64,000 nucleotides of DNA, taken from a virus. The stretch covers positions 3,390 through 67,389 of the IMG/VR virus record IMGVR_UViG_3300029568_000024; one strand, given 5' to 3'. The number at the start of each line of letters is the position of its first letter. Position 1 is the stretch's first letter. Made by a program: the position numbers and the translations under genes. Below the pieces are notes generated by a model, which was given only the letters and a program-made list of their open reading frames with translations, did not search any database and was not told the DNA's origin. Positions 3,257-39,486 of the stretch are shown here, in pieces.

Positions 3257-4135
3257 TTATACAGGATAACTCTTGAACATATTATAGTAATTGTGATACT
3301 GCGCTCTTCTGTTTAACCACCAGATCTTCTGCATCTCTTTAAAGTCTGGAGTATTTACAAATCCAAGTGCGTTATTTCTTGCAGCTCTCAAACGTCCTTC
3401 TATTAGACCTAATTGATTAGCCACATTCTCTCCGGCAAAAACCATGTTCTCAAGAATCCTCTGCTTCAAGGCATACTCGTAGTATTCATTGCAATAAGGA
3501 TGATCCAGTACAAGCAATCTTCCTTGAGAGTCTTCCATGGCTCCTTGGAAACTGATATATACTTTACCTGTTGTAAAGTTTGTAAGAAGATAACCGTCTT
3601 TTATTTCAGCAATATCTGATGCTTGCTCTCCGACATTTGGACAATCACAAGTAGCATCATTTACATTCTGGATCCTCAAAGGATAGAATGCAGTGTAAGT
3701 TCTATACTCTCCACCGCCAATCTTCTGAACTAACTGATACTGATTCTTGTCTTCACAGGTCTTAATAACACATACCTCTTTACATTCCGGATCATCACAT
3801 GGTCCGGACTCATCTGGAGCTGGTACATAAGGCACAGGGTTATCTGTCTCTACATGTGTACCAGACGGCATCTGAGTAGAGATGCTATAGTCACCACACA
3901 TAAAAGCATAGTTCAAAGAAAAGAAATCACTTGGAAGCTTGGTCTTACCATGCTCTACATCCAGCACCACTTCTTTGGTTCTATTGATTCTTAAACCAAG
4001 ATCATAATTTACTCTCGTTGCAACTTTAATTAACTGCTGAGGTTCAATCATCCCCTCCATTGCATATGTAGAAAAATCTACTGTTACATCTTCAAGTAAC
4101 TGATCAAAAGTTCTATACTTATGTGATACGCTCAT
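3257..4135 (-). CDS. Putative tail ring/tubular protein with Cys-rich insertion
   Basis: 292 aa, directly upstream of the stabilization gene; helical N- and C-termini as in crAss-like ring proteins; internal PCDDPECKEVC segment. Confidence 0.5.
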   Translation of the reverse strand: MSVSHKYRTFDQLLEDVTVDFSTYAMEGMIEPQQLIKVATRVNYDLGLRINRTKEVVLDVEHGKTKLPSDFFSLNYAFMCGDYSISTQMPSGTHVETDNPVPYVPAPDESGPCDDPECKEVCVIKTCEDKNQYQLVQKIGGGEYRTYTAFYPLRIQNVNDATCDCPNVGEQASDIAEIKDGYLLTNFTTGKVYISFQGAMEDSQGRLLVLDHPYCNEYYEYALKQRILENMVFAGENVANQLGLIEGRLRAARNNALGFVNTPDFKEMQKIWWLNRRAQYHNYYNMFKSYPV

Positions 4136-7650: not shown

Positions 7651-8862
7651 TTAAAGTGCCTGATAAGTGAGCTCGCAGATGTTACCCATCTCAGGGTGTT
7701 GTAACTCAATCTTACCTGCTCTCTGGTTACCTACGTACTTATTGTGGTAATGGTAGTAATCAGTCTTGCATAGACTAGGGAGAGTCTTATGTATAAAGCC
7801 GGTATTCTCAGAAGTAGTTACATACTCCACCTTTCTGTTCTGATGATAGTGTCCTGCAAATAGGGTCCTATTCTTAGTACATCCCCACTCTTTAGCATAC
7901 TCTGTTGCATATACTAATGGTGTGTTCTTAGCTGGTACATCACCATGTTCAAAAGCGTTAAAGTTATCATGCCACACATGTACCTTTCTTTCTGCATATT
8001 CAATGTCCCAAGTAATATTAGGATCTGATATAGCTTTAGAAAGAGCATGAGCTAGGTGAAAGGATGATAACCTATCATGGTTACCCGGTATGTAAACTAC
8101 AACGAGCTCATCACAAAAAGCCTTTGCATAGTTTAGTCCCCAGTGCATAGCATCAAATGCTTGGATATATGCATCGGTTGCCATGCTACAATTATCTAAT
8201 GGTGTACCGCTAGTAGTAGTCCCAGAGAAAGAATCCATGTTAATCATGTCACCGCCTACTACAAAGAATAACTTCTCTATGTGGTGTGCTGCACTACCTC
8301 TAAGTAAAAGATCCTTGAGTGTGTCTTCAAAGTCTTTGTCAATGGTTTCATTTCCCTGCTTGCCAAAATGGATATCCTGTAAAGAAATAATGCCACAAAC
8401 TTTCGTGGCATTCTTATTCAAAAAGTGATCTGGTTTTGTAATATTGTAGTCTCTTGGCTGCCAGTTCTTAATTACATCTTCTATGTAATTCTTATCCTCT
8501 TGCTTGACTCTGGTTATAAAAGCAGACACCCTCCAATGATCCCCCATCTGCTTATTCCAGTATGAGGCTAAACGCCATTGTGTTGTATCAATCTTTAATA
8601 GCTTGACTATCTCTTCCGGAGACTTAGGTTCATGATCAAATGTACCTGCTATCTTACCCTCTCCTTTTTCTAGATTAATTTCCTCAGTAAACTGCTCATT
8701 CTTTGCAGATCCACTAAAGAACTTTTTCTTCTTTTTTCTTTCTGAAATAATCTCACGTTTAATCTTAGAATATGTTTTTTCAGAGATATCTAAACGTGCT
8801 GCACAATACGGAACACTCTTTTTCCATTTAAGAGATTCTTCCACTTTTGCTTTTAAGCTCAT
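7651..8862 (-). CDS. Calcineurin-like metallophosphoesterase with N-terminal HTH-like region
   Basis: Motifs LQDIHFG, GGDMIN, IPGNHD, FEHGD, FAGHYH. Confidence 0.8.
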   Translation of the reverse strand: MSLKAKVEESLKWKKSVPYCAARLDISEKTYSKIKREIISERKKKKKFFSGSAKNEQFTEEINLEKGEGKIAGTFDHEPKSPEEIVKLLKIDTTQWRLASYWNKQMGDHWRVSAFITRVKQEDKNYIEDVIKNWQPRDYNITKPDHFLNKNATKVCGIISLQDIHFGKQGNETIDKDFEDTLKDLLLRGSAAHHIEKLFFVVGGDMINMDSFSGTTTSGTPLDNCSMATDAYIQAFDAMHWGLNYAKAFCDELVVVYIPGNHDRLSSFHLAHALSKAISDPNITWDIEYAERKVHVWHDNFNAFEHGDVPAKNTPLVYATEYAKEWGCTKNRTLFAGHYHQNRKVEYVTTSENTGFIHKTLPSLCKTDYYHYHNKYVGNQRAGKIELQHPEMGNICELTYQAL

Positions 8863-8876
8863 ACTTAGAAGTTTAT

Positions 8877-8884
8877 CAAATTTA
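8877..8884 (-). promoter_or_regulatory. Bacteroidota sigma-type -7 box (TAAATTTG)
   Basis: Matches TAnnTTTG 15 nt upstream of the phosphoesterase ATG; the same box occurs at 29849..29856(-), 56540..56547(+) and 56999..57006(+). Confidence 0.55.
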
Positions 8885-8900
8885 AAGAAATTAAATTAAC

Positions 8901-8928
8901 AAAAAAGAAGGCCCCCGCAGGGACCTTC
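8901..8928 (-). terminator. Intrinsic terminator
   Basis: GAAGG-TCCC/GGGG-CCTTC stem followed by T6 on minus strand, downstream of 8971..9528. Confidence 0.75.
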
Positions 8929-31128: not shown

Positions 31129-31437
31129 ATGCCTGAGATTACATCTTACATTGCTGATTACTTTGTCCATGAGGATGGTCTTATCTCTTATATCTCTGTT
31201 ATGGAGGAAGGAGGTGAGACAATTGATTGCCGGATAGAGTTCATTGATGGTTCTGCTCTTATGTTAGATCAGATCCAGGAATGTATGAAGACCGACGTTC
31301 CTGAAGCTGAGGCTTCCAAAACTTTCAAAGCTCTGGTTCAGACTTACAAATGCTATAACCGTTTGTTTGTTGACCCCAGAGTGTGTCCTCTTTGTAATGA
31401 GATGCTGGAAGATACGTGCAGCCTGATTAGCTGCTAG
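31129..31437 (+). CDS. Hypothetical early protein, C-terminal CxxC..C
   Basis: 102 aa; CPLCNEMLEDTC. Confidence 0.6.
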   Translation: MPEITSYIADYFVHEDGLISYISVMEEGGETIDCRIEFIDGSALMLDQIQECMKTDVPEAEASKTFKALVQTYKCYNRLFVDPRVCPLCNEMLEDTCSLISC

Positions 31438-31604
31438 TCCGTGGCCCACGTGGATGAAGGGAATGAGTGGTGATTCACTCTAACGGGGAAAAGCGTGGGA
31501 GAGAGACCCACGTGTAACTACTGACGAGTAGTTATCTATTAAGTTAGCTTTCAATCAAACTCCACCCGTGCGGGGAGTCTTATAGCCGTGGACGCACGGT
31601 TATG
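31438..31604 (+). ncRNA. Structured leader / riboswitch-like element
   Basis: CCCACG(31445-50) or CCCACG(31507-12) can pair with CGTGGG(31494-99); hairpins GAGTG/CACTC, AACTACT-GACG-AGTAGTT, ACTCC/GGAGT, ATAGCCGTG-GACG-CACGGTTAT. Confidence 0.55.
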
Positions 31605-31733
31605 AGCACCTCTACCGCTATGAAAAAGATTCGTGATACCCAGAAGCAACGTGCAGAGATGCAACAGCTTCGCAGACTGACACGCACTCGTGTCAAGCCT
31701 AATAAAAAGAAGGATTGGGCACCTTCAGAGTAA
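31602..31733 (+). CDS. 43-aa basic peptide (not in track)
   Basis: MSTSTAMKKIRDTQKQRAEMQQLRRLTRTRVKPNKKKDWAPSE. Confidence 0.5.
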   Translation: MSTSTAMKKIRDTQKQRAEMQQLRRLTRTRVKPNKKKDWAPSE

Positions 31734-31771
31734 TAACCTAAAGCTGGCGAGCAAGATGTACGCAAAAGAAA

Positions 31772-32032
31772 ATGACAGTAGAGTTTATTAAGACTGTTGA
31801 CATGCACAACGGAGCTAACCAGGCTTTGTACAAAACTGATGACAAGGAGCATCCTTTCATTATTGTCAGTGGTATTCTCAATGAACACGCTCATGAGGTA
31901 ATGGCATTTCCTGCTGATGCAGAAGGTGAGATTACAAATTGGGGTGAGATTGCTTGTGTCCGGTACACCACAAGTCATAAGGAGTTCTTTGGTGAGCTCG
32001 GTTGGAAACAAACTAAAACCGAAGACCAATGA
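31772..32032 (+). CDS. Hypothetical early protein
   Basis: 86 aa; EVMAFPADAEGEITNWGE motif. Confidence 0.65.
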   Translation: MTVEFIKTVDMHNGANQALYKTDDKEHPFIIVSGILNEHAHEVMAFPADAEGEITNWGEIACVRYTTSHKEFFGELGWKQTKTEDQ

Positions 32033-32259
32033 AAAATCCTGTGATTCAAAGACTTGTGCTTGGTATACTCAGGTGGTTTGCTGTAACAACGCTACCGCTT
32101 GTAACCATTAGCATGGTATGGTGTGCCACTCTTGGTGCATTTGACTTCTTTGCCTGCATGCATTCCGGTGCTGTGATGTTCTTCACTGCAATGTTTTCTG
32201 TTGCCGGAATACTTATTGCAATTGGTGTTGATGAAGAAGGTCAATCACTTTTGAACTGA
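32029..32259 (+). CDS. Two-TM membrane protein
   Basis: 76 aa, two hydrophobic segments, ATGA overlap. Confidence 0.6.
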   Translation: MKNPVIQRLVLGILRWFAVTTLPLVTISMVWCATLGAFDFFACMHSGAVMFFTAMFSVAGILIAIGVDEEGQSLLN

Positions 32260-32269
32260 CATGTGTTAT

Positions 32270-33170
32270 CATGTCTATAGGTTGTTTAACCCGCCAGATA
32301 TGGTGGGTTAGCAGCCTGAAGCATACGTTATTGTTACCCTCAGAGTTTAGATACTCATGGTGTATGCGTTAAGCCTGCTTGACAGGTTACTGAAACAATA
32401 GGTCAGCCTTCGTGACCATAGGATAATCCAGTGATGGAATAAAGTGTATCCCTTAAGAAAGGATACGCCATGCATTAGCATGCCACTGAAAGGTAGTTGC
32501 ATATCTATGTCTTGGAATGGCCCTACAGGGTATAAGAGATATAGACACCATTAGGAAGTGGTGTTGAGTGAGAAATCACAATAAGAATGTAGCTAGGTAA
32601 TGGTAGTACCAGTCGCCAACTGGGGATCCATTATCAATGTTTATGTTTGATGTTGCAAGAAATTGCATGTCATGATTAAACATAGTGATTAGACTTGGCA
32701 GTCGAAAGCAGGGTGGAGTTGATAGCTAAACTACTCAAAAGGTGGCATGCTATACAATCAACAACCGCTTCACTCATCGTTCCTTCTCTTATCTCCTAGC
32801 CTACAGGGCATATATGATCAAGAGCAAAAGTGTTGTTGAGTATTGAGTTTACAATGTTCTTATTGTGCTGTAATATGCACAGACTCTAAGGCCGCAAGCC
32901 ACAGAGTAAACGGAACGAAGTATCATTGCATTTGGTGTGAGGCATCACATTTATCCCGGCAGGGAGGTCAGTGAGAAAAGTGAAGTTATATGACTCAATA
33001 CAGGGATGGCGGACATCTAAATCCGTGAACATCTTATCTACCTTCAGTAATGGAGGTGTGTGTATGTGGGGAAACCTGCTAAAATGATATGCAACTTTAT
33101 GGGTCAACACTCAGCCCTGGTGTCATGCACAAGAAAAGCCTTCACGTGGCGCATGATGTAAGTAAGCTTA
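32270..33170 (+). ncRNA. Candidate large ornate structured RNA (~900 nt)
   Basis: No credible ORF; >15 local hairpins, several GNRA-capped, many G-U pairs; long-range helices 32476-87/32741-52, 32495-505/33086-96, 32577-90/32854-67, 32840-48/32993-33001, 32758-65/32832-39. Boundaries approximate. Confidence 0.75.
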
Positions 33171-33212
33171 TGCTGAAACTAATTTTCTTATTCACCATTC
33201 AAACCTAAACCT

Positions 33213-33521
33213 ATGCCTAGAAGAGAATTTCACCCAATCAACGGTGTATACCTTACACAAGAACTTGGATTTGAAGAAGACACTTGGGGTTATGGAGATG
33301 AACTAATTCCATGCTTTACCAAAGTCTATTTAGATACTGTAGTCTTTGTAGCATTACCTCAGCAGCATGTACGTAAAAGTGATCTATATGATGCACACCT
33401 TAGAGTGTTTGCATTCATGAGTAAAGAAGATTACGCTGCAGACAGAGCTGTTTGCTTTGAGAATCTATACAAGCTTATTGACGCAACTGCAATCTTGGAT
33501 GCAGAATGCGCACCGCTTTAG
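33213..33521 (+). CDS. Hypothetical early protein
   Basis: 102 aa, A/C-rich leader. Confidence 0.6.
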   Translation: MPRREFHPINGVYLTQELGFEEDTWGYGDELIPCFTKVYLDTVVFVALPQQHVRKSDLYDAHLRVFAFMSKEDYAADRAVCFENLYKLIDATAILDAECAPL

Positions 33522-33570
33522 GTGGTGAGGGGGTCAGCTGTAATGGCCGGCCCTTCACCATAATTTTTTC
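33522..33570 (+). terminator. Long hairpin/terminator
   Basis: GTGGTGAGGGG/CCCTTCACCAT stem extended to a GTAAT loop, T-rich tail. Confidence 0.6.
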
Positions 33571-33591
33571 ACTAACCTTAAACCCATATCT

Positions 33592-34026
33592 ATGGATCTA
33601 AAAGATAGAACACAGTATGAAATGCCTGTTGCCAGGTGGATTTATTATGCTAAGAGATTTAGTTGGGAATATATTGATCCAGATCTTGTGATAGAAGTAC
33701 TTGAAAGTTTTCTTACTACGCATGAGACAATCTGTGAGAATAACTTTCGCATGCCTATTTACAATGCTTGGAAAGCTGAGCAGCCTAAGTTCAAGCGTGA
33801 AGATTATGAGAGTGAGGGCAACTTAGAGTTGTTTGAGAAGCTCATCAAAGACCATCATGGTATTGATGTTAATATTGCTCTTCTCATAGATCATGAGAAT
33901 AGGAAGCAGATCTCGCGAGAAATCATGCGTTTTAGTAGGTGTGTCAGCATATTTGAGAAGGATCACCATGTAGTTGATGCCATTAGGAGTTTTTCAGAAA
34001 AGCCTAGATATGGGTATGAAGACTAA
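33592..34026 (+). CDS. Hypothetical protein
   Basis: 144 aa ORF in co-oriented series. Confidence 0.6.
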   Translation: MDLKDRTQYEMPVARWIYYAKRFSWEYIDPDLVIEVLESFLTTHETICENNFRMPIYNAWKAEQPKFKREDYESEGNLELFEKLIKDHHGIDVNIALLIDHENRKQISREIMRFSRCVSIFEKDHHVVDAIRSFSEKPRYGYED

Positions 34027-34213
34027 CCGCATGAAGGCTCTTGAAGAATGGGAGGAATTGAATGATGACCAGCGGTTAGCACTGCTGGTCAGATTTCCAC
34101 CTCAAAGACTTCAGAGTATTATCAAGGAGAAACTATTATCACACTGGCTCACTGGTCGTGAGATAGAAGATATAGTTACACAAGCACATCAATCTTTAAA
34201 GACTAAGTTATGA
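34010..34213 (+). CDS. Hypothetical protein
   Basis: Likely start 34010 or 34016. Confidence 0.5.
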   Translation: MGMKTNRMKALEEWEELNDDQRLALLVRFPPQRLQSIIKEKLLSHWLTGREIEDIVTQAHQSLKTKL

Positions 34214-34470
34214 CAAGCTTTAACAAGTTTAAGCAAGCCACTTCAAAGGAAGACTTCAAGCCTGGAGACCTTCCTTATAAAAGACAAATGATTAACATCC
34301 TTATAGATAGGGATGTTGTTAGGCGGAGTAACCGCCGTGGTAAGTATGTCCTCAAGAAAAAGCTGCATGCTAAGGACATATACAAGTTTATTGATGCAGC
34401 AAGAGTGAGAAGTCTTAGTTATAACTTCAACTTCTTATCCAATCAAGGTTATACTATTAATCGGCAATAG
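34210..34470 (+). CDS. Basic hypothetical protein
   Basis: 86 aa, ATGA-coupled. Confidence 0.55.
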   Translation: MTSFNKFKQATSKEDFKPGDLPYKRQMINILIDRDVVRRSNRRGKYVLKKKLHAKDIYKFIDAARVRSLSYNFNFLSNQGYTINRQ

Positions 34471-38864: not shown

Positions 38865-39275
38865 ATGGAACATCATACAAAAACATTAGGAGATTTAGGT
38901 GTATTAAAAGCACAATTGGATTTATTTGAAAAAGGATTTATAGTATCAGTACCACTTACAGAGCATGCACCTTTTGATTTAGTCATTTATAAGGATGGTG
39001 TATGTAAAACCGTTCAGGTTAAATCAAGGAGTGTTACCTCAAGAGGTACTATTGAAATTCAATTCAGAAATGTTTGGAGTGACAGAAATGGTATTCATTC
39101 ATCAGAAGTAGATAAAAATGCAATAGATTTATATTGTGTATATTGTCCTGAAACTGATTTATGTTATTATTTTAATCCATCAAATTTTGATAAATCTATT
39201 ACGCTTAGGATAGAACCACCGAAAAATAATCAATTAACAGGAGTACATTTAGCTTCTGACTATACGGCCCTATAG
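38865..39275 (+). CDS. PD-(D/E)XK homing endonuclease, I-Ssp6803I-like (PF11645-type)
   Basis: LGDLGVLKA..VSVPL..APFDLVI..VQVKS..IDLYCVYCPETD..LRIEPPKNNQ; stop codon lies inside tRNA-Arg. Confidence 0.8.
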   Translation: MEHHTKTLGDLGVLKAQLDLFEKGFIVSVPLTEHAPFDLVIYKDGVCKTVQVKSRSVTSRGTIEIQFRNVWSDRNGIHSSEVDKNAIDLYCVYCPETDLCYYFNPSNFDKSITLRIEPPKNNQLTGVHLASDYTAL

Positions 39276-39339
39276 TTCAACTGAATAGAACAACTCACTT
39301 CTAATGAGTAGGTTCCAGGTTTGAATCCTGGTAGGGTCA
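39266..39339 (+). tRNA. tRNA-Arg(TCT)
   Basis: GGCCCTA/TAGGGTC acceptor, GTTC/GAAC D stem, ACTCA-CTTCTAA-TGAGT anticodon arm, CCAGG-TTTGAAT-CCTGG T arm. Confidence 0.9.
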
Positions 39340-39344
39340 CGATG

Positions 39345-39387
39345 TACAAGCTGAGGGTTCAAGGTTCGAGTCCTTGTGGGTGTACCA
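39345..39387 (+). tRNA. 3' half of the interrupted tRNA gene, with CCA
   Basis: TACAA GCTGA GGGTT CAAGG TTCGAGT CCTTG TGGGTGT A CCA; TGGGTGT pairs with GCACTCA at 38794. Confidence 0.8.
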
Positions 39388-39471
39388 GGCCGGGTGATGA
39401 AATGGTAGACATGAGGGACTTAAAATCCCTTGAGCATTGTGCTCGTGCGGGTTCAAGTCCCGCTCCGGCTA
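39388..39471 (+). tRNA. tRNA-Leu(TAA)
   Basis: GGCCGGG/TCCGGCT acceptor, AGGGA-CTTAAAA-TCCCT, long variable arm GAGCA/TGCTC, GCGGG-TTCAAGT-CCCGC. Confidence 0.92.
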
Positions 39472-39486
39472 CAACTAAATCTTAAT

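Follow-up and report, generated by a model that had tools for sequence, protein, structure and literature searches.

The 64,000-nt stretch of DNA analysed here (hereafter the window) corresponds to positions 3,390 to 67,389 of IMG/VR virus record IMGVR_UViG_3300029568_000024, a 73.5 kb sequence with an estimated completeness of 62% that encodes a portal protein, a large terminase, a major head protein, and a DNA polymerase. The locus of interest is a gap between open reading frames (ORFs) at 32260-33212, in which ~32320/32332-33117 on the + strand is very probably the gene for a giant ornate RNA of the GOLLD class, carried by a distant crAss-like aquatic phage and belonging to a divergent clade that has its own 5' domain. 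The terminase is closest to those of crAss-like phages of Bacteroides, Flavobacterium, and Cellulophaga. Because its identity to them is just 24-26%, the crAss-like origin proposed in the original prediction, which was made from the sequence alone, is loosely supported, and a placement finer than "distant crAss-like phage" is beyond the evidence.

As had been claimed, the gap exceeds every other ORF-free gap in the window, whether ORFs are cut off at 60, 80, or 100 aa; its + strand ORFs are all of 51 aa or less, and the - strand contains one ORF of 74 aa. The gap was also said to be richer in guanine and cytosine (GC), which is correct (0.42 vs. 0.377 window-wide), but the enrichment is modest. 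The dense base pairing that had been described was confirmed by a + strand minimum free energy (MFE) of -295.8 kcal/mol (z = -4.9), which none of 20 shuffled sequences equalled in stability; the - strand fold of the gap gave z = -4.1. The following features were delimited at the locus.

32029-32259, + strand: upstream hydrophobic ORF of 76 aa without a family match, which ends 19 nt before the hairpin listed next and has 73-90% identity in near relatives.
32278-32318, + strand: strong 18-bp stem-loop just 5' of the mature RNA (MFE -30.1 kcal/mol, z -4.9).
32320-32710, + strand: clade-specific GOLLD 5' domain, a chain of covarying hairpins with domain-wide nhmmer homology in ~45 loci.
32711-32775, + strand: opening compound stem of the GOLLD 3' domain, which carries the UCAAAAG loop and the 5' arm of helix D (32758-65) and corresponds to positions 1 to ~65 of the Rfam GOLLD model RF02032.
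32776-32822, + strand: variable linker, 62-65% identical in near relatives vs. 95-99% in the flanking RNA domains, and unalignable family-wide.
32823-33117, + strand: core of the GOLLD 3' domain, defined by Rfam alignment, RNAalifold, and canonical and compensatory pairs.
33122-33189, + strand: candidate self-cleaving ribozyme resembling that of hepatitis delta virus (HDV), located by a match to the Rfam CPEB3_ribozyme model, our own descriptor, and a published table of theta ribozymes.
33213-33521, + strand: first downstream ORF, 102 aa, without a family match, which starts 24 nt past the ribozyme candidate.

The RNA is assigned to GOLLD because of a full-length Rfam match and covariation in every helix of the 3' domain. 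Model RF02032 spans only the conserved 3' half of GOLLD and has a curated gathering threshold of 150 bits, and Rfam at gathering thresholds reported nothing in the region. In an E-value scan, the model matched 32711-33117 (+) over positions 1-416 of 416 (E 1.4e-18, 72.6 bits), a match that was recovered again when the whole virus record was scanned and that would satisfy the E 1e-5 cut-off of PMC12286853. The ROOL model was unmatched up to E 10 in 32100-33350, and the OLE, RNase P, transfer-messenger RNA (tmRNA), and intron models were all unmatched in the Rfam E-value scan, in agreement with the earlier remark that hallmarks of RNase P, tmRNA, and introns were absent. The invariant motifs of the 3' domain, namely the UCAAAAG loop, AGCAAAAGU, the CGCAAG loop, and the terminal CUCAGCC, were all found in order in the window and in the family alignment. 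In published descriptions of GOLLD (PMC12286853), the 3' region is universally conserved, the 5' region less so, and the linker variable and disordered. The same layout was found here, in ~790 nt that comprise a 5' domain of ~390 nt and a 3' domain of ~400 nt with a hypervariable linker between them. By analogy, linker 32776-32822 corresponds to the internal linker that is disordered in GOLLD env-38; substitutions and indels among strains in the RNA-library contigs described below also concentrate in it, at 32777-32819.

The locus is thus a divergent branch of the known GOLLD family and not a new RNA class. The original prediction had proposed a large, ornate phage non-coding RNA on the + strand, either "GOLLD/ROOL-like" or of a new class. 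The RNA and its strand were borne out by G.U alternation, the Rfam match, and covariation. The Rfam match and covariation identified GOLLD, the ROOL model found no match, and a new class was unsupported; the sub-threshold GOLLD match removed the novelty and left the RNA call intact. The window RNA shares with GOLLD (RF02032; Weinberg et al., 2009; env-38) the 3'-domain architecture, the invariant motifs, the two domains with a hypervariable linker, and a length of ~800 nt, as well as being phage-borne, having relatives that adjoin transfer RNAs (tRNAs), and being abundant as RNA. It differs from classical GOLLDs in its model score of 72.6 bits, its unalignable 5' domain, the lack of an adjacent tRNA, its carriage by a distant crAss-like aquatic phage, and a candidate self-cleaving ribozyme at its border. 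ROOL (rumen-originating, ornate, large) is likewise a large ornate phage-associated RNA with a similar genomic context, and forms an 8-mer cage. In contrast to the separate-domain GOLLD layout of the window RNA, ROOL is ~580 nt long, with 5' and 3' regions that intertwine. A second weak GOLLD match in the window, at 8761-8928 (-) (20 bits, E 1e-4), overlapped a 403-aa ORF (7651-8862) and was taken as spurious.

RNAalifold on 28 non-identical sequences yielded 91 pairs, 73 of which had both sides changed in at least one sequence, and a separate run yielded 141 pairs, including 101 compensatory ones. Helices were checked by a de novo scan that sought stacked, covarying pairs and by a helix table, with the partner slid by 1-2 columns as the control. 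The 3'-domain helices were 82-100% canonical with 1-7 compensatory pairs each, compared with 10-66% for slid partners. Stem 32711-19/32767-75 (6-7 covarying pairs) and hairpin 32731-35/32741-45, which bears the invariant UCAAAAG loop (4 covarying pairs), were both 100% canonical. Support was also obtained for hairpins 32864-81, 32882-908, 32935-50, and 33009-26, for stem 33033-38/33086-91, which encloses 33039-58 and 33066-79, and for the terminal helix 33101-04/33114-17. The core at 32823-33117 contains AGCAAAAGU, the 3' arm of helix D, helix E, pseudoknot 32854-59/33027-32, the CGCAAG loop of 32882-908, and the terminal GGGU/GCCC with CUCAGCC. Hairpin 32935-50 has a GGCA loop in the majority of members, and in one clade this loop reads UCGC; the same GC/CG switch has been reported for L21a, a symmetric kissing loop of GOLLD (PMC12286853), which is an indirect hint of a cage contact. 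Alternation of G.U pairs with U-A or G-C fixed the + strand.

The 5' domain contains covarying hairpins at 32401-17, 32427-38, 32444-68, 32470-83, 32505-45, 32610-22, 32654-67, and 32692-703, and its conserved junctions include AGGAUAA, AUAAAGUG, GAAAG, a YGCCA loop, an AGAAAU loop, and a UUGGCAG loop. Other 5'-domain hairpins covary by eye alone; register shifts gave several of the hairpins seen by eye low scores in the global MAFFT alignment, and a sub-alignment rescued only part of them. The 5' end of the RNA lies between ~32320, where family conservation starts, and 32332, where the RNA-library contigs start. The strong hairpin at 32278-32318, which had been counted among the local hairpins of the RNA (as 32279-32317), is real but lies outside the mature RNA of the RNA libraries. 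It is kept in the nearest relatives with changed loop and stem letters, at 85-86% identity vs. 99% for the RNA. It may be a site of 5' processing (RNase III type) or belong to the leader of the primary transcript.

Of the other structures initially put forward, local hairpins GTGTATCC/GGATACGC, CCTTCA/TGGAGG, and GTGGG/CCTGC showed covariation in homologues, and TCCA/TGGA and TGCAA/TTGCA showed partial covariation support. Hairpins GACACCAT/GTGGTGTT and GGTAATGG/CCATTATC covaried by eye only and scored poorly in the MAFFT register. Five long-range helices, A to E, had been drawn, and compensatory changes among homologues were found in D and E and in none of A, B, and C. Helix D (32758-65/32832-39) was 98% canonical with 7 of 8 pairs compensatory, and the first 5 bp of helix E (32840-44/32997-33001) were 99% canonical and all compensatory. 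On the other hand, helices A, B, and C were 55, 47, and 62% canonical, respectively, had zero covarying pairs, and were rejected. The 3' arm of A belongs to hairpin 32724-26/32749-51 with 32731-35/32741-45, and its 5' arm to a CAUGC/GCAUG hairpin; the 3' arm of B pairs with 33033-38 instead (98% canonical, 6/6 covarying); the 3' arm of C pairs with 33027-32 (100%, 4 covarying) and 32877-81. All three 5' arms are part of local hairpins conserved in the 5' domain. The fold is indeed pseudoknotted, but through crossings other than those proposed: helix D crosses stem 32711-19/32767-75, and 32854-59/33027-32 crosses helix E.

Homologues were collected by GOLLD-motif pattern scans of viral and metagenome contigs, followed by nhmmer. 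Approximately 45 loci are homologous over ~810 nt, including the 5' half. The nearest relatives (L122, L118, and L104) have 96% identity, a sister clade (L027, L039, L105, L126, and L130) has 62%, and other clade members have 45-53%. Identity to L122 and L118 is 99.2-99.5% in the 5' domain, 95-96% in the 3' domain, 62-65% in linker 32776-32822, and 73-92% in the flanking genes, and this RNA of GOLLD architecture is under strong purifying selection. The hidden Markov model (HMM) of the clade also matches the 3' domains of classical GOLLD loci, with E 1e-9 to 1e-19. Like classical GOLLDs, clade relatives L089, L116, L068, L098, and L111 sit inside tRNA arrays. A BLASTN search against 50,697 GenBank phages was unmatched, and the clade pattern had 4 matches in 185,579 prokaryote species genomes, all of them by chance.

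The element at 33122-33189 is likely an HDV-like self-cleaving ribozyme, as judged from its letters and their arrangement. The predicted cut, U33121/G33122, lies 4 nt past the GOLLD end. With paired regions, joining segments, and loops denoted P, J, and L, P1 would be formed by 33122-28/33151-57 (GUCAUGC/GCAUGAU, with a G1.U wobble), J1/2 by AC, P2 by 33131-37/33183-89 (AAGAAAA/UUUUCUU), P3 by 33138-40/33148-50 (GCC/GGC), L3 by UUCACGU, J1/4 by GU, a short P4 by 33163-67/33172-76, and J4/2 by C33179-UAA with the catalytic C at its start. This order (P1, J1/2, P2, P3, L3, P3', P1', J1/4, P4, J4/2, P2') fits the nested double pseudoknot, and the core letters fit the HDV-like consensus (G1.U, RCC-U-YC-NCGY-GGY, CUAA; Supplementary Data 2 table of PMC10879173; locus L171). 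The minimal HDV-like ribozymes that phages carry are known as theta ribozymes (Kienbeck et al., 2024, PMC10879173), and the window element shares with them the G1.U, 7-nt P1 and P2, P3 GCC/GGC, L3 U-YC-NCGU, J4/2 CUAA, and a predicted cut at the 3' terminus of a phage gene for non-coding RNA. In contrast to theta ribozymes, its P4/L4 segment (J1/4 to J4/2) is 20 nt instead of 5-8, so it falls outside the theta descriptor, and its upstream RNA is a GOLLD, whereas the theta cut site is within 5 nt of a tRNA 3' end. Its P1.1 is UC/GU, as in the CPEB3 ribozyme (RF00622, a mammalian HDV-like ribozyme) and unlike theta. L3 UUCACGU and J1/4 GU are also identical to those of CPEB3, but the lineage is unrelated and the likeness reflects a shared HDV fold, not descent. 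The window element was not among the listed entries of the published theta tables (PMC10879173).

Several observations weigh against a ribozyme. The only Rfam ribozyme match was CPEB3_ribozyme at 20.6 bits (E 0.014), which is below every Rfam ribozyme threshold (35 bits for CPEB3). The element lacks covariation, as its four copies hardly differ (L122 and L118 match it at 71 of 72 positions). For 33118-33192, the nested MFE does not surpass that of shuffles (z -0.26), P4 is poor, and P1.1 has a single Watson-Crick pair. It is still rather unlikely that 33122-33189 is a chance HDV-like arrangement or a structure in the 5' untranslated region (UTR) of the 33213 gene, since all conserved HDV-like/theta core positions occur in order with 7-bp P1 and P2. 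In 1.69 Mb of fetched loci, our own descriptor retrieved the window, three near relatives, and one other family, and it retrieved nothing with the catalytic C replaced or in 10 shuffles of the whole set (34 Mb). In locus L171 (12287-12420), a theta ribozyme adjoins tRNA-Cys (1-2 nt) and shares the P3/L3/J4/2 core, whereas its P1 and P2 differ. The weak Rfam score was not counted against the window element because Rfam gave no ribozyme match at E up to 10 for the L171 ribozyme either, so that its models are insensitive to such phage ribozymes. A search of viral contigs for diverged versions of the core produced 39 matches, nearly all from one unrelated coding sequence, with L171 as the one real theta ribozyme. 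Furthermore, the element begins 4 nt past the GOLLD end, and the sister clade has a ribozyme of another class on the corresponding side.

All sister-clade loci with enough flank have a pistol ribozyme (RF02679) on the GOLLD strand, 6 to ~280 nt past the GOLLD end, with scores of 51.9-65.1 bits against a threshold of 34.5. This class is not present in the window, and its fold differs from that of the window element. One further clade GOLLD is directly preceded by a typical theta ribozyme. The positions are as follows.

L027, 4605-4666: pistol ribozyme.
L105, 1979-2040 (-): pistol ribozyme.
L115, 603-664: pistol ribozyme.
L150, 930-998: pistol ribozyme.
L039, 3451-3512 (-): pistol ribozyme.
L109, 2050-2111: pistol ribozyme.
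L140, 11779-11845, equal to L136, 1012-1078: typical theta ribozyme directly 5' of the GOLLD, right after a TATAAT box.

The pistol cut falls close to the 3' end of the ribozyme itself, which would therefore remain on the upstream RNA. Cleavage by the theta ribozyme of L136/L140 would, as read from the sequence, leave the ribozyme on the GOLLD 5' end. The 170-280 nt between GOLLD and pistol carry a common motif, GTCAGGCAGTTGTAG, and this spacer may be another small RNA. No ribozyme was found at gathering scores in 24 classical GOLLD loci. It is possible, at somewhat less than an even chance, that clade GOLLDs are released from longer phage transcripts by small self-cleaving ribozymes at their flanks, the classes of which are interchangeable: HDV-like on the 3' side in the window, pistol downstream in the sister clade, and theta on the 5' side in L136/L140. 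Neither GOLLD with flanking ribozymes nor GOLLD in crAss-like phages is mentioned in the titles and abstracts of the open papers searched or in the text of PMC12286853.

The gene-free stretch is present in 20 public runs from 17 studies of fresh water, sea, salt marsh, and sediment, and six of these runs are RNA libraries. Contigs of four metatranscriptomes were compared with 31300-34300 and were confined to the RNA, with first letters at 32332, 32333, 32333, and 32335 and the longest contig reaching ~33106. Flank depth was zero in three runs and ~6 vs. 88.8 in the fourth (~15-fold). Uniform DNA contamination would not produce such a pattern. Hairpin 32278-32318 is outside these contigs, none of which bridges 33106-33135, as would be consistent with the predicted self-cleavage, and a contig with ~15-fold lower depth begins at 33135 and spans ORF 33213-33521, which is probably on the same primary transcript as the RNA. 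The metatranscriptome mapping proposed in the original prediction thus showed that the region is transcribed, and the RNA accumulates in nature as a discrete species far above neighbouring messages. Two features of these data count against a stricter reading: they are assembled contigs only, so strand and exact ends are undefined, and the strains are 95-99% identical to the window and not the exact genome.

The same strand as the flanking genes and the lack of an obvious terminator would also suit a locus that makes no independent RNA but serves the downstream early genes as a long, structured leader (5' UTR) or as separate small elements in a patchwork. This explanation is very improbable, because the RNA-library contigs lie on the RNA alone at a depth at least 15-fold over the downstream gene, the whole 810 nt moves as a unit among different neighbourhoods (tRNA arrays and other gene sets), and long-range covarying helices join its parts.

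Other observations weigh against membership in GOLLD, and the first two of them could point to a new giant phage RNA class that resembles GOLLD by convergence. The match of 72.6 bits is half of the RF02032 gathering threshold, and the clade members tested are also below it, with 75-123 bits vs. 255-336 bits for 24 classical GOLLDs from viral contigs. The 5' domain cannot be aligned with classical GOLLD 5' regions: an nhmmer profile of the clade 5' domain was unmatched in 26 of them, and its short motifs occur in classical GOLLDs, but in the same arrangement in 0 of 26. In addition, the window lacks a tRNA that adjoins the RNA, the nearest being at 39266-39472, 6.1 kb away. Convergence nevertheless appears scarcely credible, slightly less probable even than a leader, given the end-to-end model match at E 1e-18 with the same motif order, helices, and pseudoknots, and the clade HMM matches to classical 3' domains; a variable 5' half is also already a GOLLD trait (PMC12286853). 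A protein-coding region that uses a different genetic code or lies on the minus strand can practically be dismissed: TAG read as Gln opens a 144-aa minus-strand frame (32676-33110) and the phages of some relatives carry amber-suppressor tRNAs, but the region is not spanned by any frame under code 11, under code 4, or when TAG is Gln, stems show paired compensatory changes, indels of any length are confined to loops and the linker, the 74-aa frame has no family match, and no conserved reading frame with a synonymous-site pattern was seen across homologues.

A number of additional features were observed around the window RNA and its relatives. The sequence TGtTATCAT, an extended -10-like box at 32264-32272, is 7 nt ahead of the base of the 32278 hairpin; it obtained no score in a consensus scan. 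A similar box, TTATCATTG, is located ahead of the sister-clade GOLLD region, just past an intrinsic terminator. The box at 32264-32272 may be the RNA's own promoter. The repeat TACAGGGYATA occurs at 32524-32534, within a 5'-domain hairpin, and at 32802-32812, within the hypervariable linker. A joint function of the two copies is unlikely because the linker copy is already changed in the 96%-identical relatives. A PHROG search of ten neighbouring small ORFs yielded zero matches.

Phage-borne tmRNA genes were found together with GOLLD in 12 of 37 scanned loci (L033, L041, L049, L086, L064, L020, L074, L075, L010, L058, L056, and L054), mostly 0.1-1.5 kb away and, in loci with positions for both genes, more commonly on the strand opposite to GOLLD. 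In L054 and L056, GOLLD itself is under the Rfam gathering score. Amber-suppressor tRNAs (anticodon CUA) are present in clade-GOLLD phages at L108 7932-8006, L114 4990-5064, L127 4109-4181, and L143 6447-6537, which suggests TAG recoding in these four phages. One subclade (L089, L116, L111, and L068) has a conserved two-tier hairpin with a GNRA-like loop in the first ~50 nt after CUCAGCC, immediately past the GOLLD end (e.g., CAAAUGCUUUUGAAGG-GUGAAAC-CUUC...), and this hairpin was unmatched in Rfam.

If the GOLLD assignment and the ribozyme candidate are taken together, the RNA would be contained in a longer + strand transcript, and the HDV-like ribozyme would set its 3' end by the cut at 33121/33122. 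After such a cut, the released RNA would end in a 2',3'-cyclic phosphate and the downstream message would carry the ribozyme at its 5' end, and the 5' end of the RNA would be made by processing just past hairpin 32278-32318. Self-assembly into an RNA-only cage may then follow. This step is inferred by analogy with GOLLD env-38, a 14-mer RNA-only cage as determined by cryo-EM (PMC12286853), and the 32935-50 loop of the window RNA carries a self-complementary GC/CG dinucleotide.

No new kind of RNA is revealed by this locus, and the ribozyme-bounded arrangement is the part most worth following. To our knowledge, only two natural RNAs build protein-free cages, GOLLD being one of them. The clade extends GOLLD, under the database threshold, to distant crAss-like phages of fresh and salt water, and because it scores under that threshold, routine annotation misses the whole clade. 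Its independent 5' domain is a second one with which to probe the contacts that a cage needs, and RNA data from the field show the molecule in large excess over its neighbours. The border ribozymes suggest how the RNA ends arise and give exact construct boundaries for structural work. "Isolated" theta ribozymes have been described in long non-coding regions away from tRNAs (Kienbeck et al., PMC10879173). If ribozyme excision of clade GOLLDs is true, it would give the cage RNA defined ends and would explain part of these isolated theta ribozymes.

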